Positions 11,446 to 45,239 of a stretch of 64,000 bases of DNA are shown piece after piece; the stretch's first letter is position 1, and every line of letters starts with the position of its first letter. This DNA is from Vairimorpha necatrix. Taxonomy: Eukaryota. The position numbers were made by a program, and so were the translations under genes. Location of the stretch: assembly GCA_036630325.1 (NCBI GenBank), contig CP142731.1, positions 992,001 to 1,056,000 of the forward strand. Reading direction: 5' to 3'. The notes beneath the pieces were generated by a model, which saw only the letters and a program-made list of their open reading frames with translations, did not search any database and was not told the DNA's origin.

Positions 11446-12267
11446 GAATTTTTAAAAAATATCCCCTTTTTTCGAAATTCGAAGCGGAAAAAATGTGAAG
11501 GAGCAAAAGTCAAAAAAATAAAGTTGTAATAAAATAGCATATTTACCAAAAATAAAACAATTGTTTTTTCGTTTTTTTTTTTTCAATTTTTTAAAAGTTT
11601 CCTTCTTCCAATTATTGATCAAGATTTATCTTTATTGTACATTGCAATGTATAACAACGAAATCTCTATATAAATAATATTTATAAGGTTCATTTGCTGT
11701 TATAAATGAATATTTTTCAAGAATTAAAGAATTTCCCAAACATGTAATGTTTTACTTTTGGAGCTAAAATATAACATATCTTATTAAATTGACATTCTAT
11801 GCGATTCAATAATTCTTAAAAGAGCATAAATATAACATTATTTTTACTTTGTTTGTCTAGAAAAACCAATAAAAACCTAAAAAACAAGACTAATAAATAT
11901 ACTACCAAACTAAGAATAACCTAACCTAGAATCTGTTTTAAACAACATAAACTGTGTATAAACATGTTTATCTTTGGCAAAAATTAAATGTAATGACAAA
12001 AGAAAGCAATAGGTTAAAACATATTTTTACAAATTTAGACTTCTATTTAACTCATAGTTTATTAGAAAACATTATTAAATTGGTTTAAATAATATATTTT
12101 TTATAAATTATGTTCAAATTAGATATTTATAAGACCATTTTTTTACTTATGTAAATTTTTCTCTGTTCCTTTCCGCTCTGGACGCTTCGACTTTTGAAAA
12201 ACAGGGCTAAAAATAAAAAATTCTGTATTTATATTGGTAAGGGGGGGGGATAAAGTGAAAATTAGCC
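11403..12267. mobile_element. Non-autonomous TIR DNA element (MITE, Mutator- or Merlin-like) inserted in the GRASP gene
   Basis: Imperfect ~85-bp TIRs (GGAGCATTTTCACTTTATCCCCCCCCTTACCAATATAAAT vs revcomp GGCTAATTTTCACTTTATCCCCCCCCCTTACCAATATAAAT); TSD gaaacctc at 11395-11402 and 12268-12275 (extendable to 9 bp gaaacctcg); AT-rich non-coding interior. Confidence 0.92.
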
Positions 12268-12318
12268 GAAACCTCGACAACTTTAAAGAGCGAAATTTCA
12301 GAAGCTGAAAAGAGCGAA

Positions 12319-15300
12319 ATGACAAAAACAAAAATTTTAGAAGCTGAAAAGAGCGAAATGACAAAAACAAAAATTTTAGAAGCTGAAAAGAGCGAAATTT
12401 TAAAACCTGAAAAGAGCGAAATGCCAAAAACTGAAAAGAGCGAAATTTTAGAAGCTGAAAAGAGCAAAATGTCAAAAACTGAAAAGGGCGAAAATCCTGA
12501 GATAATTAAAAATGAGGAATCCAGTGAAAAAACTAACTATGAGATTAATGAAAAGTCAAATCCCGAAGATAAAGACAAATTAAAAGAAGAAATGAAAAAT
12601 GTTAAATCTAGTGGAATGAATATGAGCACTTTAATGAGTGATATTATTGATTTTTACAGTGATAGTGAAATGAAATCAAAGAGCAAAATAAAAGAAGAGT
12701 CAAAGTCAAATGAAGATTTAAATGAAAAACCTGGGACAGAAATTCATAAAAGCGAATTAACAACCTTACTAAGCGAAAAATCAGAAAGCAAAATTACCGA
12801 AGAGCGAAAACCAAAATTGAACAAAGATGTAGAATCAAAATTGAATGAAAAATCAAAGGGCGACGTAAGTCAAAAACATGAAGAAAACGAAAACAAAGAA
12901 ATTTCGACAACTTCAGAGAGCGAAAAATCTAAGCCTGAAAAATCTAAGTATGAATTAAAAGAAAGGTCAAAAGAAGATATAAATGAAGAAAAAATTGAAA
13001 CAACAGAAGAGAAATCAAAAAGTATGACAACTCAATTTCACGACGACAACGAAAACAAAGGCCAGTCGACAACTCTCACGAGCGAAAAATCTAAGCCTGA
13101 AATTTCAGACGAACAAAAGTCGGAAATTATCGAAAAGTCAGAGACCGAAACAAGTCTAAAATCTAAAGAAAACGATCTTGCATCAGAAATAAAAGAACAA
13201 TCAAAAGAAGAAATGAGCACAAAAGAAAATTATGAGAAACAAATAACAGACATGTTAAGTGAAATATCGAAAGAAGAACCTGAAATTCATGAAAAGATTG
13301 AGACTAGTAGAATAAGCCAAAAATCTGAAGCTTCCAAAATACAAGGAAATTCGTCAACTTTAAAGAGCCTAAAAATAATCCCCGAAGAGTCAAAGCAAGA
13401 AATCGACTCAAAAATAAATGAAAATTTAAGTAGCGAAATAAGCCAAAAATCTGAAACTAGTAAAATTGAAGAAAAATCAAAAAGCGAAGAACTCAAGACA
13501 AAAGGCGATAAGCCAGAGGAAGAAATAAAAGACGAACAACATTCTGAAAAGAACACATTAAAAAGCGAAATAAGCCAAAAATCTGACGGCCTTGAAATAA
13601 AAGAAAAATCATCATTTTTGACGAGCAGAATGTCAAAGACGAAAGAATCTGAATCAGAGAGCAAAGAGCCAGTGACAGAATCAAAGGAAGAAATAAAAGA
13701 AGAACAACATTCTGAAAAAAGCTTAAAATCTGAAGGTAGCAAAATCAAAGAAAATTCACCAAATTTAAAGAGCGAAGAATTTAAAACGAAATCAGAAGAG
13801 TTAAAAAGTGAAAGCACAGAAGAACAACATTCTGAAATTCATAGAAAAACAGAGATTGGTTCAATAAGTCAAAAATCCAAAGATCTCGAAGATAAACAAG
13901 AATCTGAAAGGTCCAAGGGCGAAGAACAAAGGAAAAAATCAAGTGAAAGCACAGAAGAACAACATTCTGAAAAGACAGAGATTAGTAAAAATCCAAAGAG
14001 TGAAATCCAAGATCATCTCCAATCAGAACTAATTGAAAGCGAAAAACAAGAGAGCAAACCAGAATTAAATGGTACTGAAAAGTCAAAGAGTGAAAATAAA
14101 GAAGAAAACATTTCTCAAATTTCAAATGAGAGTAAAATGTCAGAAGAATTTAAGACCGAAATAAAAAACGAATCTAAGCGCGAAATTAAAGTAGATGTAT
14201 TTTCTAAGAGTGAAATAAGTCACAAGGAAATAAAAGACGAACTAATTTCAAATTCGTCCAGTGAAGAATCAAGCACATATCAAAAGAGTGAAACATCCGA
14301 GCAAGAAGCAGAAATAAACTTAGAATCAAAATCAAGTAAAACTTTCAAAAGCGAGGCAAGTCTAAAAAACATGGAAAACCATAAAAGAGAAGCAAGTCTA
14401 AAAAACATGGAAAACCATAAAAGAGAAGCGAGTCTAAAAAACATGGAAACCCATAAAAGAGAAGCGAGTCTAAAAAACATGGACAGTGAAACCTCCAAAA
14501 GAGAAGCAAGTCTAAAAAACATGGAAACCCATAAAAGAGAAGCGAGTCTAAAAAACATGGACAGTGAAACCTCCAAAAGAGAAGCAAGTCTAAAAAACAT
14601 GGAAACCCATAAAACCGAAGCGAGTCTAAAAAACATGGAAACCCATAAAAGCGAAGCAAGTCTAAATCTCCCTGACAATAAATCCCAGGCAGATTTTTTA
14701 AATAGTTCGTCAAATATTTCTGAACAGAGATCAGAAATATTTGACGAATTTAAGGGCTCAATGAATGACCAGTCAAATTCGGAGTCTAAAGACGAGTCTA
14801 AGAAGTTTAATGTTAGTAAAATCAAAGAAGTTTTATATTCAGAAATTCTCAGTGAAAATAACTCAGGAGATACTAAATCTTCATTAGTCTCAGGAGATAA
14901 TAAATCAACATTAGTCTCAGGAGATAATAAATCTGAAGAAAGTTTCTATAAAAATCTAATCCAGAAAGATCTCGATCTTCTCCCTGAAAACATAAACAAA
15001 GAAGAAGAAAAGACACAAGAAGATAAGAGTAAAGAAGATTACAAGAATCTACATGTAACAGAAAAGAGTCAAGAAGAAAAGAGTAAAGAAGACACCCTAA
15101 AATATTCTGATCTCATATTTGAAGAGTCCTCTGAGGGAGGATACAATGACATCGCCCGCGTATTAAATGAGCCTTCTCCTCAAGGAATCAGCCTTGAGCA
15201 CTCCACTAAATTCCAAGAAGACAGTGAATTGAAAAGTCCCATAGAAGAAAATATGATGAAAAGTCCCATAGAAGAAAATATAATAAAAAGTCATGTAGAA

Positions 15301-15504
15301 GAAAATATGATGAAAAGTCATGTAGAAGAAAATATGATGAAAAGTCATGTAGAAGAAGACACTGAGGCAAGTGGATGGAAGACGGCATTTGACAATATGA
15401 CTGAACTTAATGAATATGAAGAAGATAGTAAAAAGAAGACTTTTATAAGCATCTTAAAAGAAGATGACACAGATTTCGATCTGGAGGACATGAGGAAAAT
15501 ATAA
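12319..15504 (+). CDS. C-terminal portion of the GRASP gene: E/K/S-rich low-complexity protein with tandem repeats
   Basis: 1061-aa ORF with the same composition as the 8572 tail; frame is open back to 12276 and joins 8572..11402 in frame when the insertion and one TSD are removed. Confidence 0.8.
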   Translation: MTKTKILEAEKSEMTKTKILEAEKSEILKPEKSEMPKTEKSEILEAEKSKMSKTEKGENPEIIKNEESSEKTNYEINEKSNPEDKDKLKEEMKNVKSSGMNMSTLMSDIIDFYSDSEMKSKSKIKEESKSNEDLNEKPGTEIHKSELTTLLSEKSESKITEERKPKLNKDVESKLNEKSKGDVSQKHEENENKEISTTSESEKSKPEKSKYELKERSKEDINEEKIETTEEKSKSMTTQFHDDNENKGQSTTLTSEKSKPEISDEQKSEIIEKSETETSLKSKENDLASEIKEQSKEEMSTKENYEKQITDMLSEISKEEPEIHEKIETSRISQKSEASKIQGNSSTLKSLKIIPEESKQEIDSKINENLSSEISQKSETSKIEEKSKSEELKTKGDKPEEEIKDEQHSEKNTLKSEISQKSDGLEIKEKSSFLTSRMSKTKESESESKEPVTESKEEIKEEQHSEKSLKSEGSKIKENSPNLKSEEFKTKSEELKSESTEEQHSEIHRKTEIGSISQKSKDLEDKQESERSKGEEQRKKSSESTEEQHSEKTEISKNPKSEIQDHLQSELIESEKQESKPELNGTEKSKSENKEENISQISNESKMSEEFKTEIKNESKREIKVDVFSKSEISHKEIKDELISNSSSEESSTYQKSETSEQEAEINLESKSSKTFKSEASLKNMENHKREASLKNMENHKREASLKNMETHKREASLKNMDSETSKREASLKNMETHKREASLKNMDSETSKREASLKNMETHKTEASLKNMETHKSEASLNLPDNKSQADFLNSSSNISEQRSEIFDEFKGSMNDQSNSESKDESKKFNVSKIKEVLYSEILSENNSGDTKSSLVSGDNKSTLVSGDNKSEESFYKNLIQKDLDLLPENINKEEEKTQEDKSKEDYKNLHVTEKSQEEKSKEDTLKYSDLIFEESSEGGYNDIARVLNEPSPQGISLEHSTKFQEDSELKSPIEENMMKSPIEENIIKSHVEENMMKSHVEENMMKSHVEEDTEASGWKTAFDNMTELNEYEEDSKKKTFISILKEDDTDFDLEDMRKI
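14352..14666 (+). repeat. Coding minisatellite of 36/42-bp units (REASLKNMETHK / REASLKNMDSETSK), about 8 copies
   Basis: Direct repeats gaagc(a/g)agtctaaaaaacatgga. Confidence 0.9.
15232..15358 (+). repeat. Coding minisatellite of 27-bp units (KS(P/H)(I/V)EENMM), about 5 copies
   Basis: aaaagtc..tagaagaaaatatgatg repeats. Confidence 0.9.
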
Positions 15505-16367: not shown

Positions 16368-16770
16368 TGGGGATAAGAAGGAGAAAAAAAATATAGAAAG
16401 ATATATCAAAAAAAACAAAAAAAAAAAAGATATAGTACTCAAAAGGGAGTAAGAATTTGTTTGTTTAATATCAGGCATGTAAACAAAATATAATAACCTC
16501 TAAAAAGAAAAATGTATAAAAAGAAAAATATATGTATTAGATATATTTTAGATATATTTGAAAATATATATTTATAATATTATTAAAAATATAGTAAACT
16601 TTATTTCTAATATAACCAGATAAAAAACTATATTAAATTGTTACCGGCTGTGTTGCACACGCCAATAATCAGACTAAAACTTAAAGATGAAACAGTTGAT
16701 AATGATCTGAAACCATCTAGGTTTCAGATCCGAAACTAAAACTATTTAAGAAATCTTAAATAGACTAAAT

Positions 16771-18177
16771 ATGCCAAATAAATATAGTTCTTCTTCTAAT
16801 AAAAAGCCTTCTTCAATAACCAGCTCTCCTTCTGGTAACACTGGCGACAACTATTCGAAATCCAACGAATTGGGCCACCTACTAGAAAAATTAGGGATAT
16901 CTACTAACACAATGGTGAAATTCAACGGTACCCAAGGCGAGAACGCATGGGTCTGGATTAATCAATTTAAATACCTCGAGGGAGAATGGAATGATATAAA
17001 ACTGCTCAACTACATTAAGAGATACTTAGGGGAATCAGCTCTCCTATGGTATGAGGCTGTAATTGAAGACGAGGTGGAAGGATATATGGAATTCAAACAG
17101 AAATTTCTAACAAAATATGGGAAAGAAGAATTCCGGGAGGGAATTAATCCCATTAAAATGCTTTATAAGAGACTATACTCTGGACCTGTAAATATGAAAA
17201 TTGAAAACTTTATATACGAACTAATGAAGCTTAACAAGAAAGCAGGAGTTAGCGTGTCTGAAATTACGGAGGAGTTGGCTAGATATTTCCCACCGTCACT
17301 TAAAGAAAAGGTGGAAGAGGCAACGTCATGGGACGTTGTACTAAAGATTTATGAGAGAAATCATAAATTTATTGAGAGTTCAAGGCAGAGACCTGAACAG
17401 AATAGGCCAAGGGAAGCAAGGACTTCAAGGCCATATACTACAAGGACAAGAGAGAGTCCAAGAAAGTTAGTATGTTATAAGTGTGGGGGCGAACACTTAT
17501 TTAAAGACTGCGAGAAACACGAAGGGAAAAAGGTGTTTTTAATCGAGGCAGATCCAGTGTCAAAAGACACGAACGATACTACGATCTCAGGGTCCATCGA
17601 CCGCGACGTAGTAAGAACGCGTTTGGACTCGGGGGAGTCCAACCCATTTATCGAAAGCAATTTTGTTGGCAGAAAGAAACTAAGAAAGGTAAAAGAAGTA
17701 CATTTTAATCAAACTATTCCACAGAGTATAGATATAACAATGTCTATACAAGAAGATGGGCGGATTAAAAAGTGGGCAAGTGCAGAAACAGCTCAGACGT
17801 CGCTTCTGTATGGAAGTTTGAGGTTTTCCGAGACGAGTACTTCGATTAACAAGCAATTCGATGGCCAGCAAAATAACTTTCTCGAGAATGATAGAAAAAA
17901 TCTAAACATTGAACGAGCAAATAAAAGCGTGGAGAGTGACGAATATACGAGCACCAAGGACGCACATAGTTCGATCGAAAAGGAAAGAGACGATGGTGTG
18001 CGCCTATACAATGAACTCACAAAAGTAAAGGAAACACGGACTAAAGAAGTAGGTCAATCCCCCGTGATTAAAGAATGTTCTACATACTTAAGTGTAGCGA
18101 AATTGAACCATCAACTCGACCCGGGAAAACGATACTATCTAACTCTTCTGGAAAAGAAATTTACGAGCACGAAGTGA
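16771..18177 (+). CDS. Retrotransposon Gag (capsid-like region plus CCHC knuckle) followed by a DSG protease-like segment
   Basis: KFNG...WINQF...YLGESALLWY...FKQKFLTKY is Ty3/Gypsy capsid-like; CYKCGGEHLFKDC; RLDSGESNPFI resembles retropepsin LDSGAxxNFI. Confidence 0.8.
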   Translation: MPNKYSSSSNKKPSSITSSPSGNTGDNYSKSNELGHLLEKLGISTNTMVKFNGTQGENAWVWINQFKYLEGEWNDIKLLNYIKRYLGESALLWYEAVIEDEVEGYMEFKQKFLTKYGKEEFREGINPIKMLYKRLYSGPVNMKIENFIYELMKLNKKAGVSVSEITEELARYFPPSLKEKVEEATSWDVVLKIYERNHKFIESSRQRPEQNRPREARTSRPYTTRTRESPRKLVCYKCGGEHLFKDCEKHEGKKVFLIEADPVSKDTNDTTISGSIDRDVVRTRLDSGESNPFIESNFVGRKKLRKVKEVHFNQTIPQSIDITMSIQEDGRIKKWASAETAQTSLLYGSLRFSETSTSINKQFDGQQNNFLENDRKNLNIERANKSVESDEYTSTKDAHSSIEKERDDGVRLYNELTKVKETRTKEVGQSPVIKECSTYLSVAKLNHQLDPGKRYYLTLLEKKFTSTK

Positions 18178-18824
18178 AGAAACAAACATTTTTATGTGTG
18201 AATAAAAGCGTGGTGAGCGAGGAAGTAGCGATCGTGCAGATCGTGCTTATCGAAATAATATCTAAAATAGATGAAGGTATGAGGCCAATACTGACCTGGA
18301 AGTTACTATTTATGGTTCTGCACTGTGAGTTGAATAACATTAGAATAAAACTCAAAAGAATAATATTTAATATATTTAAGAAGCCGCGTAATAAGTTCAT
18401 AATGTCTTACTATACATTATATAGAAATGAAAGATTGGATAATCAGAGCAGGAACATGCTCAGTAAAGATTCTATGAAAAACGAACACATAAAACCAAGT
18501 TGTCCTCTTGCTAATATGCATAAAATGGAAATCTTAGTCGCAACTGAATATAGGAACATGAAGAGACCTTTCAATAAAAAGAACATAGGATCATTCATTA
18601 ATATAAAAAGAACATCTAGAAGAACCTTTGAAACCCTAAGTCTTGTGAATGAAAAGTTCTACGATAAATTGGTGAACGTTGCATCTTCCCAGGAAGTGAA
18701 GCCTTGTTCTAAGGAGGGGAGAGTGTTACCGGCTGTGTTGCACACGCCAATAATCAGACTAAAACTTAAAGATGAAACAGTTGATAATGATCTGAAACCA
18801 TCTAGGTTTCAGATCCGAAACTAA
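18075..18824 (+). other. Second overlapping ORF inside the LTR element (unknown; possibly degenerate pol remnant) that reads into the 3' LTR
   Basis: 249-aa ORF with no recognisable RT or integrase motifs. Confidence 0.3.
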
Positions 18825-19259
18825 AACTATTTAAGAAATCTTAAATAGACTAAATATGCCAAATAAATATAGTTCTTCTTCTAATAAAAAGCCTTCTTCA
18901 ATAACCAGCTCTCCTTCTGGTAACATAAATAATGTATAAATAAGAAAAATATATATTAGATATATTTGAAAATAGAAAACTTTATTTCCAATATAACCTT
19001 ATTATATATAATATAATATTATATAAGATTCATATTTACATATTGGAGAGGTAAATTTAAAGTAAACTTTATTTCTAATATAACCTAATTTAATATATTA
19101 AAAACATAGTCTAGAACTATATTAAAAACATAGTCTAAAATATATTAAAAACATAGCCTAGAACTATATTAAATTCTAAATTAGATTTATATGGGAGATT
19201 TACGATTTTGTTTACTACAAACAATACCAAACAAACAAAATCACAATAAACTCCCCTAA

Positions 19260-20621: not shown

Positions 20622-20949
20622 AAAATAAATTACAGGGGTTTCCAGATTGATTTATAACAAGTATATGAACGTGTTTGACATGGTTAATATTTGTACAAAA
20701 ATAATTTGAATTTTGTATAAAATATGATTTTAAATATATGTCACAGTGTAGTAATGGTTTTTATTAGGTATATATCTTGTTGTGTAAGAATGCATATTCT
20801 CTCAGTCTATGTGGATTTTTTATTTACATGCTCTCTTTATAGATATATTTTTTAGAGCAATAAGCAAGAAAACTTCCTTTATGGAACTTACCTACGTCGT
20901 CATACAATGAGATCATTAAAGGCTAATCTCGATACATTAAATTTGCTTT

Positions 20950-21741
20950 AAGGTGCCCTTAGCACAAGGGAGAATGCAATGCTTCCATTGAGCAATGGCT
21001 AAATTCGATTTCCAAGGGCACCAAAATTGTTTATATTTTCTATGATGCAGTTGGAACAACTTAGATGATGAAAATGTCCGCGATAATCATATAGTTGATT
21101 TAATGAAACTTGTTGTGTGTCCAGCCACAGGGGAATTAGCACTAGTGTAGAAACACACCTCAAAGCCAAAAAACAGTATCACCCTTGTGGTGACTTAATG
21201 ATACATAAAAGTATCTAATGGATACGGCCTAGTTGGAACCCATGGCTGGTGCACTCTAGAGTGGGATCCTGGAGCTAACTAAGAGACTAGACGAAGTAGG
21301 GCAATAGAAGGTCTCGTGGGCTTTATCCTACATGATTCTGTAACACGGTGGCCGAAACTAGTAGGAAAATGGTGGTCACCGCAGCCCAATAAAAAAACGC
21401 CGGGCTGGGGATGTGGTCGTGTAAGGAGCCGTGTGTGCAATACGGATGATTGTAGAGACCTTTGAGTCAGTACGATGATGTATCTCCTCGTGTTATAGAT
21501 AACCATACCCGTTAAGTTATCCGCTGTGGGGTCACTCTGGACGCGATTTGAGGTATAAATGGAAAGTGTTCTCCCGGAGCCAAAGTCCAATGGATACGGC
21601 GGAGCTTGCTGCACCGGCAAGTGTATGGGGGGAGTTTTAGTGAGTAAGAATCTCACAGTACCAGTTAGACGAGGATCACACCCAAATCCCTCTGGTCCCT
21701 ATGTAAGGTTTCTCCCTACCTCTTACTTGCAAGAAAAAAAA
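20950..21741 (+). mobile_element. tRNA-headed SINE-like retroposon, copy 1
   Basis: tRNA-like head GGTGCCC...GGGCACCA (20952-21023); body homologous to 43714-44513; A-rich tail; 14-bp TSD attaaatttgcttt (20936-20949 and 21742-21755). Confidence 0.88.
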
Positions 21742-22335
21742 ATTAAATTTGCTTTGTATGCAATCAATATTAAATAAAATCTGGCCCATTAAAATATCAT
21801 AAGAACCTTATATATCGCGCCAAATAAGTTATACAGAGATATAAATAACGAGCATGTTTAAATATAGTTAGGCTCTATTAAATATATAATGTCTACAGCA
21901 AAGTGCACATATTAACTTAATTTAATAAGCTGCACAGACCAGTTGTCTTTCACGAATTTCGGCCAATATGCGGCAGAAATCTACCAATGGAATCCAAGAG
22001 GTCTTATTGATTTGTTTAGCTTATCAGCTTGTGCTGGCAATTACATCTACACACACCAACTAATAGCCCTTGTGACCTGCATGTCTAATATACATCGAAT
22101 TGGAACTGAACATATATTATTTATGATCTTAAAAACATTCCTACTGAGTATACTCTTTTGTGACTAAACTATATACAAGTTTTAAAAATCAACTTATCGA
22201 TTAAATTCCTAATTATATATTTTGAGATGGTTATGCATTATATAAATACAAACAAGCCTAGTCATAAGGATTATGATTGAATATAAAATGTATTAAACCA
22301 ACGCATTTTCTTAAACTACAAGCACTAAGATAATA

Positions 22336-23022
22336 GGTACATGACCGTTTGGAACCCGCTCTGGGAAAATGAACCCGCTTTGGGAAAATGAACCCGCTTT
22401 GGGAAAATGAACTCGCTTTGAAATTTTAAAAGACCCCCTATAAAAAATGACATAATTGGCAAAACAATGTTTGTTGAGGCAGATGAGGTTTTTAGTGATG
22501 TAATGTTTTTATACGTGGAATTTAAATAAAGTTTATTTTGGAAACATTTGATGCTGATTCGGCGTGCGCCTTGCTCGTTTCTGTAACTAGTAGAAATACT
22601 GCTTTTTCCTTAAGGTAATACAAGAAAATGTATAACCTGTTTCTATTTTGATCTCTAATCAATGGGTAGCATATGATGCCAAATTAGCTAAGCAAAGGAA
22701 TGGAGCACAGTACTAAGAATCACTCCATAAGTGCTGTAACCTCTAGCGATTCTGAGTCACAATACCATATAATTTAGTTGGTTTGGCTCATTTCTATAAG
22801 AGATATTTGATCTTAACATAAACAAAGAAGAACACTATGAGTACCTTTTACAGTTTCACTAGGCTTTTCAAATTCCCAAAAACCACCGGACAAATTGTCT
22901 TCTGTCATTATTTAAAATAAATCATCAAGTCCTTTTTTTTATAACTTTTTTTATTTTTCCCTTTTTTGAATTTTTCAAAGCGTCTTCATTTTCCCAAAGC
23001 GGGTTCCAAACGGTCATGTACC
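22336..23022 (+). mobile_element. Merlin (IS1595-like) DNA transposon deletion derivative
   Basis: TIR GGTACATGACCGTTTGGAACCCGCT(C/T)TGGGAAAATGAA; 8-bp TSD agataata; 19-bp subterminal repeats; transposase remnants MFVEADE, ILISNQWVAY, HSTKNHS resembling VEIDES, IHSDxWxAY, HxTVNHS. Confidence 0.88.
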
Positions 23023-26747: not shown

Positions 26748-29700
26748 ATGAAGGGTAAAAATGAAGAAGAAGGAGCTGAACTAAAAATAGCTAAAACAAC
26801 ACTAGCAGCACCGAACAACCAAAAAACACACGATATAAACTCAGTATCATTATGTACAGAACCAGGAAGACCCAAGAGGTCTAACAAGTTGGATTCTCTA
26901 ATGGCCGTTCTCAGAAAAGTTGAGGGCGCCAAGTATGATTGGCCTAGGAAGTCTTTCCAAGCCATTTTAAGTAGATGGAATCAGATGCCAAAGGGAGGAT
27001 GGAACAAAGTACTAGAGTTCTATTGTGCAAAATTTAAGGAAAAAATATCTATTGTTAGAATAAAGAAAATGGCGCAAAAGCACTTGAAAATGAAGCAGGG
27101 ACGCTTACAAGAGTAAGAGAGTTTAAAGAGGAGAATACAACTAAAAGAAGAAAGACTTTGGACGAGATTGCAAGAGTATGCTCCCTAAAAGATGTAGAGC
27201 GACAAAATGAAATAGATTAAAGATTTAAAGAGATGTTGACTAAAATTAAAGATACAGACGTTTGCTCTGTACAAGGAACAAGAAAGATATCTTCTAAAAA
27301 AGCTTATTATGAAATTATAGAATCTTTAAATTTAGTGTTTGGAAATTTTGTTTACTAAAGAATAAAGTCAATAATATGAATGATATTGTCAAAATTATCC
27401 AAACTGCACAATGGGTGTATCAAGAGATAACATGTAAAGAAATTAAGAAAAGTGTTTAAAAAGAAAGTATTGAAGATAAAATAAACGCAATGGAACAAAA
27501 AAAAGCGCTTTTTGATACAATTTAAGTTAGAGAAAGATAAGATAACTGAGGAAGAGAAAAAAGCCCTAAGAAAATGCATGAGGGAAAGAAACTTAATACT
27601 TTCAAAAGCAAATGATGTTATTAAAATGGAATTATATCTTAAGGAGAGGATCTTGGTATACAAGAAGAAGATAGAAGTTCACGAGAAGAGAAAAGCATAT
27701 AGAAATGGAAATACAAAATTTGAACTTTACCGTGGAAGATACTACCGAGACCTAAATGTAGAGGAGAAGAATGATCATAAAGTTGGGAAAAAAGAGATTG
27801 AAGATTTCTGGTCGAAAATGTGGGAAAATGCAGAACAAGAAACTTCAAAATGAAGAAGAATACCTATGGAAATACAAAATAGAACAGCCCAACATCAATG
27901 CTTTCCCGACAGAAGAAGAGTTTAAAAATATAATAGGATGGCTGCCCAACTGGAAAGCAGCAGGTCTAGATAGAGTCTATAATTTCTTTATGAAGAAAAT
28001 GTCTAGCCTACATGGATCTCTTTACAAAGTAATTAAGAAAATATGCCTGGAGAGTTATACGGAAGAAGAATGGTTTTACAGAGGAATTACTTATCTGATA
28101 CCTAAAGGGCAACCAGTGGAAGGAAAAGACTTTAGACCCATTACATGTATGTCTAACTTGTACAAATTACAACAAAATATATTACATACGTACTCCAGGA
28201 ACATGTGGAATCAAACTCTCTTTTAGCAGATAACCAGATGAGAACAAAGAGGAAAGTGCAGGGAGCTAAAGAACAGGCAATGACAAATAACATGCTGAAT
28301 AGAGAATATAATTATAAAATCAAAACGGCCTGGATAGATGTTAAGAAGGCGTACGACTCAGTAAGACATGACTATTTAATAAAATGCATTAAAGCTCTGG
28401 GACTACTAGAGTGGATATGTAAGACAATAGAAATACTAGCCAGCAAGTGGAATCTAGAAATATTTGAAGGAAATGAGAAGATCATGGGAAAGAAGGTCAG
28501 AAGAGGAATATTACAAGGAGATAGTTTGTCCCCGCTATTGTTTGTGCTGTGTATAGACCCGCTAAGTCGGAAATTGAATAGTATATACCCCAAGTTAAGC
28601 ATCCCGTTGGGAGAACAAGCATTTGTAACTAACCATTTGTTGTTTATTGACGATTTAAAATTACTTGCAGAAAATGAGGAAGTAATGAAAGAGATGATAG
28701 ATGAGACAAGAAAATTCTTTAATACTGAAGGTCTAGAAATCAACGCGGAAAAATCGGCTACAAATAGTATATAGTGTAAAGATGAAGGCAAGTTGCTAGA
28801 GGGGCATGGGGGTATAAATATCTAGGCATTACAGAAAGCCACGAAGGTAAGATAATGAAGGAAATAAAGGAAAAAATATGGAAGGCCATCTTATTAAGAA
28901 TCTAAAAGTTATGTAAGACTAAGCTGAATGCGAAACATTTGTTTAAAGCAATCAATGAACATGGAATAAGCCTAAAAAATTACTATATAGGAAAAATAGA
29001 TGCCGAACCAGAAGAATACAAGATCATAGACGACAACATCAGAAAATTATTGATTAAATATCACGTCCATCAACAACCTGCAACTAAAGAAAGATTATAT
29101 CTCTCCAGAGCCGAACTTGGAAGAGAGCATTAATGCGTAGAACATAAAAGTGAAAGAATGCTTTTACAACTAGCCAAAGAATTTGAAAGCACGAAAGAAT
29201 CTGTTCTAAGACGCAAGGCGATTTTCCACTCCGAGAAAACTGGCTACACATATCTATCCACCATAGAAGAATATATAAAAGAGAAATATAAACTTAAGGA
29301 AAACGTAACAGCTAAAATATTAATAGAGGCTCAAACTGAATCTCTTTATAGCGATATAAAAATAAAAACAAACCATTCAAAGCTATTTAGACCAAGAGAT
29401 GATCCACTTATTGATATAAAACAGGCTGCCACGTGGCTCACAAAAGGAAATATAAGCCCGAGAGAGGAAGGCAATTTATGTGCATTACAGGACTGAAATA
29501 TTTTCTTAGAGAAACAGATAAAATTCCCACACTGCCATGAATATGCAAAGACAGTAGATCATATGGCCACCCAATGTGATCGTATGCTTTCACATGATTA
29601 CATGAGACGGCACAATGAGGCACTGCGATGCATCCACCTGCAGTTGTGTAAGACGTATGGTCTATCCCATGCCAAAAGAAATAGAAATCATTCAGTCCAG

Positions 29701-30231
29701 GAATGTGTAGCTAATGAGTATGTTGAGATACGAGTCGACAGTTGGATACATTCAAGTATTAAAATAAAGTATAACAAGCCTGATATACTAATTGTAGACA
29801 AGTTGAGGAAAGAAGTGATCGTTGTAGAAGTTGGAATCACAAGTTTTAACAACATCCATGCAGTAGAAACAGAAAAGAAACATAAATACGACTTGCTCGC
29901 AAATCATGTGGCTTCTCTCTACAAATACAAGCCGAAAATTATTCCTTATGTGATGACGTGGGATGGAATAGTAACTAATTTTCACCGTACGCATATCAAA
30001 GTGCTCAGATTAGAACCCAGAACGGAAGCATATATACAGTCAAGAGTCCTTAAAATGACTTTAGAAAGCCTAACTATGTCAGCCAGACATGGGCTTGATA
30101 CAGAATTGGAAGGGGCCTTCGAGAGCCCAATGAGTGAATCTCAGAAGGAAGTCCTGGAACTGCCAGATGAGACTGTAAGCGTATCTTGTGAAAAGTAATT
30201 AATAAGCCGAATATTATACCCAAATAAATTA
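26748..30231 (+). mobile_element. Non-LTR retrotransposon with RT and C-terminal restriction-like endonuclease (R4/Dong/NeSL-like), inactivated by stops and frameshifts
   Basis: WKAAGLD, FRPITC, WIDVKKAYDSV, GILQGDSLSPLLF, HLLFIDDLKL, YKYLG, RLYLSR, degenerate CCHC, RHN, KPD..VEV; 15-bp direct repeat tatatattttattaa at 26733-26747 and 30232-30246. Confidence 0.92.
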
Positions 30232-34852: not shown

Positions 34853-37800
34853 TGTGATATATTTGTATAATTTCTATCCCCCATTATGATAAATAAAGAC
34901 ATGGGGGCGATACCGAATCGTCAGTTTACAAGTGTGGACTGTGGTCTAGAGGCCAAAAAGTTATTAAAAGAAGTTAGAAGAATAATGTATAGGTTGGAGA
35001 TGGAGGAAATAGAAATCAGTTTGTGGAAGCAGAGAATATTTATGGAAGGAAGTGAAGAAATAAAAAATTTCATGGTAGAAAGAATTAGTAAAGAGGACGA
35101 ATATTATAAAATAATTGAGAAATTAGAGGAGGAAATATGTAGAGAAGAAAGAACTAAAAAAGAAGAAGGAAATAGGAGAGAACTTATGGAGGTCATAGCT
35201 GAGAATGTTAGAGAAACTGTGAGAAAAGAAATTCAAGAGAAAGATTTAGTTTTAAGGAATACAGTACAAGAAATAAGAAATAATAGGAATTGTTTTAATT
35301 GTGGTAAATTTGGCCATATGGCTAGGAACTGCTATTTAGGGAGGAACAATAATCAGGAAAATAATAAAAAGTTTAATAAGTACTTAAATTTAGACGAAAA
35401 CCAAAGTTGTAGTAGCAGTAATGATAATAAAGAATATAAACCAAGTGGAAAGACAAAACGAGTTAAGTTAAAGGAATGTAATAATAGTGATAGAAGACAT
35501 AAAGAAAGAATATATGCGAGCAATAAAGAGACGAAAAGAAGATTACTGAAGAGGGCATTTACGTTGGAAGATCTCAAAGCGGAATATGAAGAAGTTTTTA
35601 AACAAGGAGATGAGGTTATAAGTTATTGTACATTAGAGAAGTGTAAGATAGATACTCCAGAGGGTAAGAAGATAGTCAGAAAGGGACAGACGATCCCACA
35701 GGCTTTGATCAAACAGACTGAGGAATATATTAATGATTTAGAAAATAGAAAAATTATAAGAAGATCGTCTTCGGAATGGCGAAACCCAATAAGAGCGATA
35801 CTTAAACCAAGTGGTGAAGTAAGAGTAGTTAGTAATTTTATAGGGTTGAATGATTTAGTCGAGAAAGACCCGTATGAGCTAACGAATATGAGAGAAATAA
35901 TAAGAGCTACGCAAGGGTCGATAATATTTACTGTTGTTGATTGCAAAGAAGCATTTTACCATTTTGAAATCGAAGAAAAAGATAAACATAAGACGGCGTT
36001 TGAATTTAATAAAAAAGTTTACGAATGGAATAGTATGGTGATGGGATACAAAAATTCCCCACAGATACTACAGAGAACGATGAATATGATTTTTGAAGAT
36101 TTGCGGGGAAATGGTGTTGAGGTATACATGGACGATATAGTAATACATGCCAACAATAAACGTAAACACGATGAATTAGTAATAGAAGTTATAGAAAGAA
36201 TTAAGAGAAATAAAATGAAATTAAATATTGGGAAAATACAGTTTAGACAAGCGGAAGTAAAATTATTAGGTGTGACGCTGAATGGAATAGACATGACGGC
36301 CGACGAAATAAAGAAAAATGAAGCCTTGGAGTATCCGGATCCAAAAACTTTGACGGAATTGAGGAGGTTTCTAGGATTGACTGGATGGTTCAGACCATTT
36401 ATAAAAGATTATGCCGGGCTGACGTTGAAAATGACAGATAGTTTGAAGAAAAATGGCAATTCGTGGAAATTTACGGAAGAGATGAAAGAGGAATTTACTA
36501 AAATGAAAAATGTGTTAAGAAATATGGGAAGACTAAGATTACCGGACTATAATAAGGAGTTCATACTAAGAACAGACGCTAGCAATTTGAGATTGGGTGC
36601 GGTGTTACTTCAGAAGAATGAGAATGGGGAATGGGTTGCTATACAATGGGCATCTAAAAAGCTAACACCTACCGAAATAAGATATGGAATATCAGAAAAG
36701 GAAATGCTTGCGATATATTGGGGCATTGATAAATTTAAATACGAGTTAAGAGGTAGGAAATTCAAGATAGAAACGGATCACAAAGCACTGGTGGAGATAA
36801 GAAATAAACCGTTTTTTAATAATAACAGAATAAATCGCTTAATCGAGAAGATACAGGAATATGATTTTATCGTGGAATATAAAAAACCTGATGAGATGGT
36901 GGTAGCAGATGCGTTGAGTCGAATAAATATGGAAGAGGATATTAAAGAAATGAAAAATAAAGAGCGAACAATCAAGCAAACAGAAGGTAAATGGAAAGCA
37001 CATGTTTTTTCCGAGAATGGAAAGCAATATTGGCAATTTGACTCAGGACGTAAAGTTGAAATACCACCTGAGAATATAAGGAGACAATTAATCCAAGAAT
37101 ATCATGAAAAAGTAGGCCACAGATGCATGACAAGTGTTTATTATGCAATGAGAGAAGAATACTATTGGCCAGGAGTAAAGAAAGAAATAAACGAGGTTAT
37201 AAAACAGTGTCAGAAATGTCAGATATATAACAGGAAAAATATGGGTGGTTGTGAATTTGTAGATACGTCGAGATACTTAGAGAAGGTTGCATTAGATTTG
37301 ATAGACTTTAGAAATGAGAAGAAATATGTTTTAGTTGCTATTGATTATTTTACACGTAGAGTATGGGGAGTAGTTATAAATAACAAGTCAAGTAATAATG
37401 TTGTTGGATTTTTGAAAAGATTATGTGAGCAAGGGAAGAAACCAGAAGAAATTATTACAGATAACGGGAAAGAGTTTATTAACGTGGAATTTAGAAAATT
37501 TTGTAGAGATCTCGATATAATACACCGACAAGTAAGTATAGAAGCGCATAGAAGTAACGGAAGAGTAGAGCGTGTTATAGGAACTTTGAGAGAAAGTATT
37601 TTAAAGTCGGATGCGAAAACTTTTGAAGGCAAAGTGTATAAAAGTATCGATATATATAATCAGAGCTATCATACGGGAATAAAATGTACACCATTAGAAG
37701 CGACTGAAGATAAAACTGGAGACGTAATGCTTGAAAATAGCCCTATGGGGAAATATTGTAATAGGTTTGGAAAGGGAAAGATCGAAAAATATAGTAAATG

Positions 37801-38071
37801 TCAATTGGTAAGAATAGCTAAACGAGAAAATTTGGCAGGTGTTAATAAGTATGAAAAAGGAAGATTTTTGGATACAGGGAAAATTGTTGAAAAGTGTGGA
37901 AAAGATTCTTATATTGTAAAACTTAGTAATGGTAGGCTTGTGAAGAAGAGACATTATGATCTGAAGGGTATGCTTGGGGTAGATGTGAAAATTAGATGAG
38001 ACTAACCGTCTTGAGGGGGGGATGTGATATATTTGTATAATTTCTATCCCCCATTATGATAAATAAAGACA
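34853..38071 (+). mobile_element. Complete Ty3/Gypsy LTR retrotransposon with 49-bp LTRs
   Basis: Identical LTRs 34853-34901 and 38023-38071 (TGTGATAT...AAAGACA); 5-bp TSD ATAAT; PBS TGGGGGCGATACC; G-rich PPT 38013-38022; single intact ORF. Confidence 0.96.
34886..37999 (+). CDS. Polyprotein: mini-Gag with CCHC knuckle, RT, RNase H, integrase (no protease motif)
   Basis: CFNCGKFGHMARNC; VDCKEAF, MVMGYKNSP, YMDD; RTDAS, EKEMLA, ETDH, ADALS; H..VGH...CQKC; LDLID, TDNGKEF, NGRVER. Confidence 0.95.
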   Translation: MINKDMGAIPNRQFTSVDCGLEAKKLLKEVRRIMYRLEMEEIEISLWKQRIFMEGSEEIKNFMVERISKEDEYYKIIEKLEEEICREERTKKEEGNRRELMEVIAENVRETVRKEIQEKDLVLRNTVQEIRNNRNCFNCGKFGHMARNCYLGRNNNQENNKKFNKYLNLDENQSCSSSNDNKEYKPSGKTKRVKLKECNNSDRRHKERIYASNKETKRRLLKRAFTLEDLKAEYEEVFKQGDEVISYCTLEKCKIDTPEGKKIVRKGQTIPQALIKQTEEYINDLENRKIIRRSSSEWRNPIRAILKPSGEVRVVSNFIGLNDLVEKDPYELTNMREIIRATQGSIIFTVVDCKEAFYHFEIEEKDKHKTAFEFNKKVYEWNSMVMGYKNSPQILQRTMNMIFEDLRGNGVEVYMDDIVIHANNKRKHDELVIEVIERIKRNKMKLNIGKIQFRQAEVKLLGVTLNGIDMTADEIKKNEALEYPDPKTLTELRRFLGLTGWFRPFIKDYAGLTLKMTDSLKKNGNSWKFTEEMKEEFTKMKNVLRNMGRLRLPDYNKEFILRTDASNLRLGAVLLQKNENGEWVAIQWASKKLTPTEIRYGISEKEMLAIYWGIDKFKYELRGRKFKIETDHKALVEIRNKPFFNNNRINRLIEKIQEYDFIVEYKKPDEMVVADALSRINMEEDIKEMKNKERTIKQTEGKWKAHVFSENGKQYWQFDSGRKVEIPPENIRRQLIQEYHEKVGHRCMTSVYYAMREEYYWPGVKKEINEVIKQCQKCQIYNRKNMGGCEFVDTSRYLEKVALDLIDFRNEKKYVLVAIDYFTRRVWGVVINNKSSNNVVGFLKRLCEQGKKPEEIITDNGKEFINVEFRKFCRDLDIIHRQVSIEAHRSNGRVERVIGTLRESILKSDAKTFEGKVYKSIDIYNQSYHTGIKCTPLEATEDKTGDVMLENSPMGKYCNRFGKGKIEKYSKCQLVRIAKRENLAGVNKYEKGRFLDTGKIVEKCGKDSYIVKLSNGRLVKKRHYDLKGMLGVDVKIR

Positions 38072-43000: not shown

Positions 43001-43713
43001 ATATGGGCTTTTTGTAGATTCATTACATTTATATATTAAAAACAGTATTTAATTCCACGTCATATTAAAAATGTTATTATATTAATTTTTAAACCTTAAA
43101 ATTGAATGTAAACATTAAACAAAAAGTATGGAAAATCCAATTTATATGACTTCGTACAAAACTTATTGTTTATGTATCTGTAATAATGGACTGTCTATTT
43201 GTAATAAAAAAAAGATATAAACAGGAACTGGTTTGATAGAATTTGCTTCTTTGTCAACAAAATAATAATCAAAGTTATTGTTTATTATTGACATTGAATA
43301 AATAACATTGTAATTAAATAAAAACAAATCTAAAAATGTTTGACATGCAATAAAGTTTTTTGTTATTTTCAAAGCAATAATGCTTTTATACTATAAATTA
43401 AAAAATTAAAACTGGAAATTTTGATTGTCGATAAAAAACTAATTTAATTTTTCTAACATGTGTAAGGGAGGATAAGACCGTACAAATGCACCTTTTAGCT
43501 TAGCTCACAATTTCCCTTACCTAACGTTAAGCTATTGCTCTCGACTCTTCTAGAAATGTATTAAAAATACAATATTAATTTTTAATGGGTAAAAAAGTTT
43601 GATTTTTTTGTTTATGTAAACGAACTAGGCTGAGTAGCCTTTCTATTTCAGTTTCTCTCTTCATAAAACATTTTATTTTTTCTCTCTTTCTATAGACTCT
43701 ATGTATTTGCTCT

Positions 43714-44513
43714 AGGTGCCCTTGGCCGAGTGGTCGAAGGGATGTTCTCATTGACCAATGGGCTGGGTTCGAGTCCCAGGGGCACCAAATTGTTTCTACT
43801 TTCTATGATGCAGTTGGAACAACTCAGATGATGAAAATGTCCACGGTAATCATTAAGTTGATTCAATGAAACTTGTGTGTGTCCAGCCACAAGGGGATTA
43901 GCATCTAGTGTAGAAACGCACCTCAAGGCCTGAAAAACAGTATCACCCTTTGGTGACTTAATGATACATAAAAGTATCTAATGGGTACGACCTAGTTGGA
44001 GCCCATGGCTGGTGCACTCTAGAGTGGGATCCTAGAGCTAACTAAGAGGCTAGACGAAGTAGGGCAACAGAAGGTCTCGTGGACCCTATCCTACATGATT
44101 CTGTAACACGGTGGCCGAAACTAGTGGGAGACTGGTGGTCAACGCAGTCCAATAAAAATGCCGGGCTGGGGATGTGGTCGTGTAAGGAGCCGTGTGTGCG
44201 ATACAGATGATTGTAGGGACCTTTGAGTCAGTACGATGATGTCTCTCCTCGGGTTATAGATAACCATGCTCGTTAAGTATATCCGCTGTGAGGTCACTCT
44301 GGACGCGATTTGAGGTATAAATGGAAAGTGTTCTCCTGGAGCCAAAGTCCCAATGGATACGGCGGAGCTTGCTGCACCGGCAAGTTATACGGAGGGAGTT
44401 TTAGTGAGTAAGAATCTCACAGTACCAGTTGGAAAAGGATCACACTCAAATCCCTCTGGTCCCTATGTAAGGTTTCTCCCTACCTCTTACTTGCAAAGAA
44501 AAAAAAAAAAAAA
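43714..44513 (+). mobile_element. tRNA-headed SINE-like retroposon, copy 2 (better preserved)
   Basis: Head 43715-43787 with A box TGGCCGAGTGG, B box GGTTCGAGTCC, 7-bp acceptor stem and 5-bp T stem; poly(A) tail; 13-bp TSD atgtatttgctct (43701-43713 and 44514-44526). Confidence 0.9.
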
Positions 44514-45239
44514 ATGTATTTGCTCTCTTGCGTTTTCTTTGTGTAATCGATTGAATCATGTATTCTGAATTTCTTTTGTGCTATACTATAAAATCTGAAA
44601 ATACTGCACCTAGCCATATATAATTTAAAGATATTTTATTTACTTATACATTCAAAGTCAAATTGTTGAGTAAATATTGGAGAGGCTAAAATATGTGTTT
44701 TTATAATAATCCAAATAATTCATCTACTTCTATTGACGTTTTGTAATTTTTAAAAGATAAAATAGCAAGAGTCATCTGAGTTTATTTTTTTATTATGCAG
44801 ATTTTTAAAACGTAATGTCGAACTCGTTTAATGAACCCTTTTGTTTTAAACCCTCTAAATATTGAGCAACGTGGCAATAAACCTTGTTATTTATGTTACA
44901 AATTCATTTGGAAATTTGCTCTCTGAGAATGTTTAATAATAAAATTGGACCATATATGCGGGAATATTAATCCAAAGAAATTATTTCCTTCATACCAGCC
45001 CAGTTTTTTTCTTACAGGAGTGTCAAATCGTTATAGTCCCATGTTTATATTTCTCTAGTGTTATATGTGAATTTCTATATTCCTTGTTAAAATTTCTATA
45101 GTGCCATGCTCGAATTTGATATTCGCATGCAAAATTAAATTTCAAGTTCAATAAAAAGTTTATTAAATAAAGTTTCTCTTGCTTTGGACTTTTTTTAGCC
45201 AGCCTATAATATTTATGTAAAACCTTTGAAATTCACGCC

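Follow-up and report, generated by a model that had tools for sequence, protein, structure and literature searches.

A recently active tRNA-derived SINE family and its candidate partner LINE in the microsporidian Vairimorpha necatrix

The 64,000-nt stretch of Vairimorpha necatrix contig CP142731.1 analysed here (positions 992,001 to 1,056,000; hereafter, the window) carries two copies of a real, recently active family of tRNA-derived SINEs with a LINE-derived tail. The explanation which we regard as very probable is that of a tRNA-derived SINE native to a Vairimorpha-type microsporidian, with a 3′ tail that was derived from a LINE and is recognised by its structure. A protein encoded at a different locus of the assembly is 100% identical to one recorded for V. 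necatrix. A SINE accompanied by a likely LINE partner is an ordinary arrangement, hardly described in microsporidia.

Structure of the two copies

The features assigned to the two copies, and to the target-site duplications that surround them, are as follows (window coordinates).

43701..43713, plus strand: left target-site duplication of the youngest-type copy, 13 bp, an exact repeat of 44514-44526
43714..44513, plus strand: complete SINE copy from the youngest subfamily, composed of one extra A, the 73-nt head, the body, the tail of LINE origin and the A tail
43715..43787, plus strand: tRNA-derived head, with the 7-bp acceptor stem and T arm intact and the D and anticodon regions predicted to form one long hairpin
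43723..43733, plus strand: putative Pol III A box, by sequence reading
43766..43776, plus strand: putative Pol III B box (T loop), by sequence reading
43788..44331, plus strand: middle body, with no folding signal, no Rfam family and no match to the proteins of the loci compared
44332..44427, plus strand: LINE-homologous segment (last 15-16 ORF2 codons and start of the 3′ UTR of the L074 LINE), 79% identity over 96 nt
44380..44494, plus strand: predicted 3′ recognition module, consisting of a closing helix and three hairpins, with the sole T4 run (44399-44402) and a predicted topology as in the LINE 3′ UTR
44495..44513, plus strand: A-rich tail, by sequence reading
44514..44526, plus strand: right target-site duplication of the 43714 copy, 13 bp
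20936..20949, plus strand: left target-site duplication of the second copy, 14 bp
20950..21741, plus strand: second copy, belonging to an older subfamily, in which the A box, the T arm and the B box are damaged
21742..21755, plus strand: right target-site duplication of the second copy, 14 bp

The segments 43723..43733 and 43766..43776 are those which we take to be the A and B boxes, respectively, on the basis of the consensus. The element measures 783 nt (head 73 nt, body 544 nt, tail about 165-166 nt), has a GC content of 48%, and ends in an A tail. The initial annotation had described two dispersed, GC-rich copies with target-site duplications and A tails and without a conserved long ORF, and it was right on each of these points: the duplications are exact, and the GC content is 47.8% in the 43714 copy and 45.7% in the 20950 copy, as compared with 25-30% in the 500-nt flanks and about 28% in the entire window. 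The longest plus-strand stop-to-stop frame overlapping the 43714 copy is 84 aa in length and exits through the tail, and the coding content of the SINE amounts to a relic of 15-16 codons from the end of a LINE ORF2. The two copies are 91.5% identical to each other.

Several other repeats are found in the window. A 202-nt sequence occurs twice, as identical direct repeats spaced 2085 nt apart, around frames of 468 and 249 aa (16639-18925), of which the 468-aa frame yielded no Pfam match; 57-nt inverted repeats surround 573 nt with internal short repeats in a MITE-like arrangement (22336-23022); a Ty3/gypsy-type frame of 1037 aa has matches to reverse transcriptase (RT), RNase H and integrase (34886-37999); and two Lys/Glu-rich frames of 957 and 1061 aa are built of tandem units of 24, 36 and 27 nt (8572-15504).

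Copy number, subfamilies and insertion marks

A pattern search of the assembly (15.0 Mb in 12 contigs), allowing up to two mismatches, revealed at least 100 heads and at least 153 3′ ends, both figures being lower bounds, while reversed control patterns gave 0 and 0. A DNA search returned 42 matches from the best 40 scored of 364 candidates, with 41 of them near full length and 93-100% identical. Target-site duplications were called at 41 of the 54 distinct loci at which the match covered at least 600 nt and both flanks were present (13 loci yielded no call), and 36 of the 41 are 11-15 bp long, a few short or long calls being doubtful. Copies truncated at the 5′ end bear target-site duplications of their own (L118, L331 and L349). 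At locus L010, a young copy was inserted into the T loop of an older one with an exact 12-bp duplication, so that other copies of the family display its empty site. With its boxed tRNA-like head, lack of coding capacity, dispersed distribution, A tail, duplications of variable length and 5′ truncations, the family has the features of a tRNA-derived SINE.

The youngest subfamily, which includes the 43714 copy, comprises 18 copies with a median identity of 99.2%, and the older subfamilies comprise 28 copies with a median identity of 95.3%; there are also relic copies at 82% and 70% identity, in which the GC content has fallen to 38-40%. Along the older copies, rare variants are roughly evenly dense at 0.019-0.024 per site per copy, as neutral decay predicts. 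The 70% copies are 83% identical to each other, and their flanks are 92% and 84% identical, i.e. the element diverges at least as fast as its surroundings. Young and older subfamilies differ in their majority letter at 14 of the 73 head positions, at 5 of the 544 body positions and at 5 of the 166 tail positions.

The family is not confined to this assembly, as it also occurs in contigs from public sequencing runs. Of 30 bins of the compared stretch, 24 are covered by contigs of X2, a run labelled with a different organism, and 21 by those of X3, which is a metagenome from bat gut. The X2 and X3 contigs carry variants resembling the older subfamilies, and loose ends in X4 read like the tail of the donor LINE described below. 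No RNA run is among the 21 runs listed. No empty insertion site was seen in contigs from four such runs, which do not reach the flanks.

Some copies were affected by later events. One and the same DNA transposon, 1.2 kb long, with inverted ends and presumably Merlin-like by its motifs, splits those at L335 (G000:C5:681100-683350) and L336 (C8:162480-164720), and must therefore have moved after those copies arose. The 70% relics L097-L103 have both flanks in common and adjoin arrays of a T-tailed LINE; they multiplied as parts of larger segments. Into one of these relics a T-tailed LINE has inserted, duplicating 14 bp.

The tRNA-derived head

At 73 nt, the head of the 43714 copy has normal tRNA length; its acceptor stem of 7 bp and its T arm are retained, as are both boxes. 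Like all of the young heads, it is reported by ARAGORN as tRNA-Met(CAT). An intact T arm and B box had been described for both copies in the window, which does not hold for the one at 20950, in which the T stem pairs at 2 of 5 positions and which ARAGORN does not call. For the older heads, the best match among host tRNAs, a set with 32 anticodon types that lacks His, Tyr and Val, is tRNA-Ala(TGC). The Rfam tRNA model is not among the matches of the head at E≤10; its best Rfam match is mascRNA-menRNA (RF01684), with 28.6 bits and an E value of 0.0014, as compared with the gathering cut-off of 42.5.

The initial annotation viewed the head as an unusual tRNA mimic, in which the anticodon region was replaced by a CATTG-nn-CAATG hairpin kept in both copies. 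The letters are indeed present in both, although a 5-bp stem with a 2-nt loop is impossible, and its 4-bp core has a mean pairing probability of 0.0 in the 43714 copy and of 0.19, 0.36, 0.02 and 0.03 in the other four of the five heads folded. Rather than being replaced, the anticodon arm is degenerate: older heads retain a 4-bp stem and a 7-nt loop at the anticodon position, for which the pairing probability is 0.01-0.59 and which is mostly unpaired. The favoured predicted folds lack a cloverleaf; in them, a single irregular hairpin takes in both the D region and the anticodon region. The folding z-score is −4.27 for the young head, and −2.55, −1.35 and 0.10 for three older ones. None of the head changes that define subfamilies falls in the acceptor or T stem, which, like the z-score of the young head, speaks for some constraint. 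Conservation within the SINE is nevertheless lowest in the middle of the head; a head of normal tRNA length that changes faster than any other part does not fit the picture of an unusual mimic.

The possibility that the head is a functional tRNA gene was considered and rejected: no stable cloverleaf is predicted, the tRNA model of Rfam is absent, and the first T4 run lies about 610 nt past the head, while in each of the 62 host tRNA genes that were compared, at least four consecutive T's follow within 40 nt. We view the head as what would be a promoter with a stable 5′ fold, and not as a working tRNA. Transcription by Pol III, which we infer from the boxes, would extend far beyond it. T5 runs are absent from the young copy, and its single T4 run is located inside the tail module; the longest T run is T4 in 43 of 50 aligned copies. 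In 17 of the 62 host tRNA genes the first downstream T run consists of only four T's, so the T4 run at 44399 may stop part of the transcripts. That no T4 occurs within the first 680 nt carries no statistical significance, as 12% of shuffled sequences are also without it.

One copy, L354 (G000:C6:346900-348100, minus strand), has three tandem 81-nt heads, and three headless copies (L323, L349 and L350) begin at nt 79-85. Both arrangements possibly reflect a site just 3′ of the head at which the reverse transcriptase pauses or jumps.

The LINE-derived tail and its candidate donor

Positions 44332-44427 are 79% identical over 96 nt to the end of ORF2 and the beginning of the 3′ UTR in a LINE at L074. 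The local alignment score of the tail against this LINE is 93, with a maximum of 32 in 100 shuffles, and 22 and 24 against the other two non-LTR families of the genome. In a genome-wide search with the LINE tail, five LINE copies followed by 35 SINE copies were found among the best 40 scored of 104 candidates. A sister SINE copy preserves the ORF2 relic in frame, agreeing at 13 of 16 residues with the ORF2 end of V. ceranae and at 12 of 15 with the resident ORF2; in the 43714 copy, there is one extra base within the relic. The 3′ 165 nt thus appear, on the strength of this homology, to have been captured from a poly(A)-ended LINE lineage coding for endonuclease and RT, and the view of the element as a Pol III retroposon relying on LINE enzymes gains a candidate partner. 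The LINE lineage in question is common to other Vairimorpha species, which counts against a host-derived element.

Past position 44427, the agreement of letters between SINE and LINE drops to 34 of 76 columns as counted by eye, comprising the last ~70 nt. Both tails are nevertheless predicted to fold into the same four-way junction ahead of the A tail, with helix probabilities mostly of 0.8-0.99, and the oldest LINE copy is predicted to refold partly in a different manner. Among five tail sequences, 4 of 17 consensus pairs are changed on both sides, with a slight covariation term of −0.2 kcal/mol, and the best tail windows have folding z-scores of merely −1.7 to −1.8. The Rfam model of the R2 3′ element (RF00524) matches positions 44382-44487 with 22 bits and an E value of 0.033, the gathering score being 38.

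A covariance model built from the five tails gave no matches in 79 metagenome loci, found in a scan for relatives of the LINE and nearly all 22-34% identical to it, or in 21 loci of the other LINE families. One marine-metagenome LINE with 29% ORF2 identity (L239:5294-5580) has the same linker and first hairpin after the stop codon, and a T-arm-like hairpin further on, ahead of its A tail; L240 looks similar by eye, and both sightings, from a simple motif search, are anecdotal. In viral contigs, the tail hairpin pattern had no matches and no relatives of the LINE were confirmed. No retrotransposon paper quoting the sequence motifs of the tail was found in the literature searched.

The best copy of the donor LINE, L074 (G000:C6:721036-724440), has an open frame of 1092 codons, 45% GC and a poly(A) end. 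The frame matches RT and, weakly, endonuclease and zinc-knuckle domains, with the endonuclease being of the APE type; the beginning of that domain is missing at the point where this copy borders on a T-tailed element. The other four copies of the family are decayed or short, and one donor copy is surrounded by a 12-bp duplication with one mismatch. Among the 120 matches listed for the donor ORF2, most of which are without a name, the V. ceranae protein is 79% identical, those of V. bombi 46-47% and those of Smittium 41-47%; insects do not appear by name. That both the LINE and the SINE end in poly(A) and that the LINE has a similar GC content support their link. On the other side, the youngest SINE copies are 99% alike, yet no intact donor was found in this assembly (88 of 88 and 57 of 57 candidates scored), and the last 70 nt are not identical to those of the resident LINE. 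No ORF2 was found upstream of an exact SINE 3′ end at any of 36 loci, mostly 3′ ends without a nearby head and drawn from the 100 listed of the 153 3′-end matches. A genome search with the Pfam endonuclease family gave 0 of 21 candidates and was too insensitive, having missed known copies.

The other two non-LTR families were considered as tail donors and rejected for want of a sequence match. The T-tailed LINE has a 1242-aa endonuclease-RT frame, open in more than a dozen copies, and a T-rich end; it is the nearest relative of the donor, with 33-41% identity in RT. It occurs in head-to-tail arrays (L041-L055) at G000:C6:557-584 kb and 704-729 kb, C1:486-497 kb, C11:615-629 kb and C12:499-509 kb, interspersed with non-coding units bearing the 3′ UTR of this LINE. 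Similar LINE clusters in another microsporidian have been linked to putative centromeres, as reported in PMC13174016. A match between SINE nt 95-204 and the region upstream of ORF1 in the T-tailed LINE proved to involve a fragment of an old SINE copy and no LINE 5′ UTR. The second family, which we presume to be R4/Dong-like from its C-terminal motifs, codes for 1199 aa and also has a T-rich end. An intact relative is present at G000:C10:758419-762018, and a broken element with an RT match occupies window positions of about 27300-30230. Judged by eye, both families leave duplications of about 11-14 bp, so that the partner cannot be told by the length of its duplications.

The body and folding tests

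The whole element folds no better than its shuffles (z = −1.30, 20 shuffles), and seventeen 120-nt sense windows have z-scores from −1.98 to +1.6, with none below −2 and similar values on the opposite strand. No Rfam family reached its gathering score anywhere in the window. The initial annotation had named five stems preserved between the two copies and regarded the element as possibly a retroposed structured non-coding RNA. The stems are present as letters, which is uninformative at 91.5% identity, and most of them are broken in an alignment of 12 chosen copies spanning 70-100% identity. In this alignment, 84.6% of the cells are paired vs. 83.3% in shuffles (10 of 500), 3 pairs have both-sided changes vs. 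2.3 (215 of 500 shuffles reach 3), and covariation is 0.091 vs. 0.075 (28 of 500), values which related sequences can attain in such shuffles without any structure. The covariation is thus not convincing, and the both-sided changes are from G-C to A-U, which drift towards A+T also yields. Of the five stems, the oldest copies retain just the one at 44059-44094, which has 95% of its cells paired and two both-sided changes. Two of the five stems (44368 and 44404) fall in the LINE-derived tail, so a match to the plain 3′ UTR of a LINE accounts for part of what had been taken for structure in the body. As to the origin of the body, only other decayed SINE copies matched it among the loci compared; derivation from a bipartite LINE, an idea found in PMC5786205, may be considered, the 5′ end of the donor LINE being missing from this assembly.

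Alternative explanations

Could the recent copies of the same SINE have been made by another enzyme, with the tail being a relic of an earlier partner? The T-tailed LINE, as the nearest relative of the donor with numerous open frames, would be a suitable source, as would the R4/Dong-like family; both leave duplications of similar length, and the donor is without an intact copy in the assembly. We regard this as unlikely: the 3′ ends of both families are T-rich and have no sequence in common with the SINE, the tail model finds nothing in their 21 loci, and every young SINE copy is poly(A)-ended, like the donor. Moreover, V. necatrix is described as tetraploid in PMC10759460, and an intact donor may lie on a haplotype outside the assembly. 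The absence of an intact donor would be due either to its location on another haplotype, or to its recent death, or to a T-tailed relative that now acts as the mobiliser. A different role may be proposed for the head, namely that of a selected tRNA mimic, an acceptor and T-arm minihelix similar to mascRNA, which would be cut out or bound by tRNA enzymes and serve as more than a promoter. The sparing of acceptor and T stems by subfamily-defining changes, the low z-score of the young head and its best Rfam match speak for it, and the headless starts and the tandem 81-nt heads give a weak hint of a boundary past the head. The mascRNA score, however, is below the gathering cut-off and rests on the acceptor and T arm, the conservation of the latter can be accounted for by the B box alone, no part of the SINE varies more than the middle of the head, and the named hairpin is improbable. 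The breaks fall at nt 79-85 and not at the discriminator nt 73, which would fit an RT pause better than cleavage by RNase Z, and heads of fungal SINEs often form no cloverleaf, according to PMC5063351. We consider such a role improbable.

It is very improbable, in our opinion, that the body represents a retroposed structured cellular RNA. Its high GC content in a 28% GC window, the stem at 44059-44094, and the fact that its origin is left unexplained by the SINE reading may be cited in favour of this view, but the partner LINE has the same GC content, no Rfam family reaches its gathering score, and the z-scores of −1.3 for the entire element and −1.9 to +1.6 for body windows, with the opposite strand alike, give no sign of structure. 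The three both-sided pairs are within the range of shuffles, A+T drift being sufficient to produce them, and the 70% copies diverge at least as fast as their flanks. Likewise very improbable is the derivation of the element from the genome of an insect host, which had also been raised in the initial annotation and finds no support. Transfer of DNA transposons from hosts to microsporidia has been reported (PMC3614468 and PMC4202319), and the coverage by X2 contigs could be read in its favour. Against it, the closest relatives of the donor are found in V. ceranae, V. bombi and Smittium, with no insect named among the matches listed; copies diverged to 70% in this genome indicate long residence; and two lepidopteran SINE papers, in the text available, make no mention of Nosema or microsporidia.

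Proposed mode of propagation

Under the preferred reading, that of a tRNA-derived SINE with a tail taken from a LINE, the internal A and B boxes would direct Pol III to begin transcription at the head and to proceed for about 780 nt into the flank. The tail, predicted to fold as a four-way junction, would be bound by the ORF2 protein of the LINE from which it was taken, and the present mobiliser is presumably a LINE of the donor lineage. This putative enzyme would nick the target with little sequence preference and reverse-transcribe from the A tail, the products seen in the genome being copies with 11-15 bp duplications, some of them truncated at the 5′ end. The body would be carried along as a passenger. 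New copies decay towards A+T, and a few source copies have founded new subfamilies, as can be seen from the subfamily pattern.

Comparison with known elements

A SINE paired with a LINE of the same tail is a standard finding (PMC3747384), and fungal tRNA-derived SINEs with the tail of a partner LINE include Mg-SINE with MgL/MGR583 in Magnaporthe, SINE2-1_BG with Tad1-24_BG in Blumeria, and AfuSINE2-1a with I-1_AF (PMC3747384 and PMC5063351). The present family resembles the fungal pairs, as far as families can be compared by description and not by sequence, in its tRNA-derived head with A and B boxes, an unrelated body, a 3′ end homologous to that of a resident LINE, target-site duplications and about 100-160 copies. 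It differs from them in its microsporidian host, in that what was captured extends into the final codons of ORF2, in that the terminal 70 nt are kept in the predicted fold and not in letters, and in a partner that need not belong to the Tad clade. The length of the element had been regarded as unusual, SINEs being usually shorter, but the fungal SINEs covered in PMC5063351 span 472-900 bp and include mgsr1 (800 bp), Egr1 (700 bp) and egh1/EGH24 (900 bp), so that it falls in the same 700-900 bp class, by length only.

The predicted tail shares with the R2 3′ UTR element a closing helix, a U-rich linker and hairpins in the same order, in what is a weak match below the gathering score. R2 inserts at specific sites and uses a restriction-like endonuclease, unlike the donor LINE with its APE-type enzyme. 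The head shares with mascRNA/menRNA an acceptor stem and a T arm without a canonical anticodon loop, but its fold sits at the 5′ end of a retroposon, has full tRNA length and carries Pol III boxes. These resemblances could be combined into a bolder proposal, which we find decidedly unlikely: the SINE would keep, in different letters, a 3′ four-way junction homologous to the R2 3′ element and common to restriction-like and APE-type clades; it would have spread on with its donor almost extinct in the assembly; and its head would be selected as a mascRNA-like acceptor/T-arm minihelix processed by tRNA enzymes.

In the related microsporidian Nosema bombycis, SINE-class repeats were tallied at 28,669 bp, or 0.18% of the genome, without family detail (PMC3614468, Table 2), and their likeness to the present family is by class label only. 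Where that paper deals with these repeats it gives no family, sequence or partner, and nine supplement files contain no match to “SINE”. The term is also absent from the main texts of PMC10759460, PMC12449221, PMC4202319, PMC7313128 and PMC13174016, the supplements of which may list repeat families. No description of this microsporidian SINE family was found in the literature searched.

Implications

Two points appear worth keeping, the candidate partner and the tail conserved in its predicted shape. The former is a concrete candidate for the partner of a microsporidian SINE, which makes its mobilisation testable, and the latter offers a natural case of a predicted fold kept without sequence, which would be useful for understanding how LINE enzymes choose their RNA. 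Since ARAGORN reports the young SINE heads as tRNAs, automatic annotation may overstate the number of tRNA genes in this genome. The young copies, at 99% identity, are candidate presence/absence markers for haplotypes and isolates. Finally, the family suggests that a Pol III transcript of 780 nt is tolerated in a reduced, AT-rich parasite.
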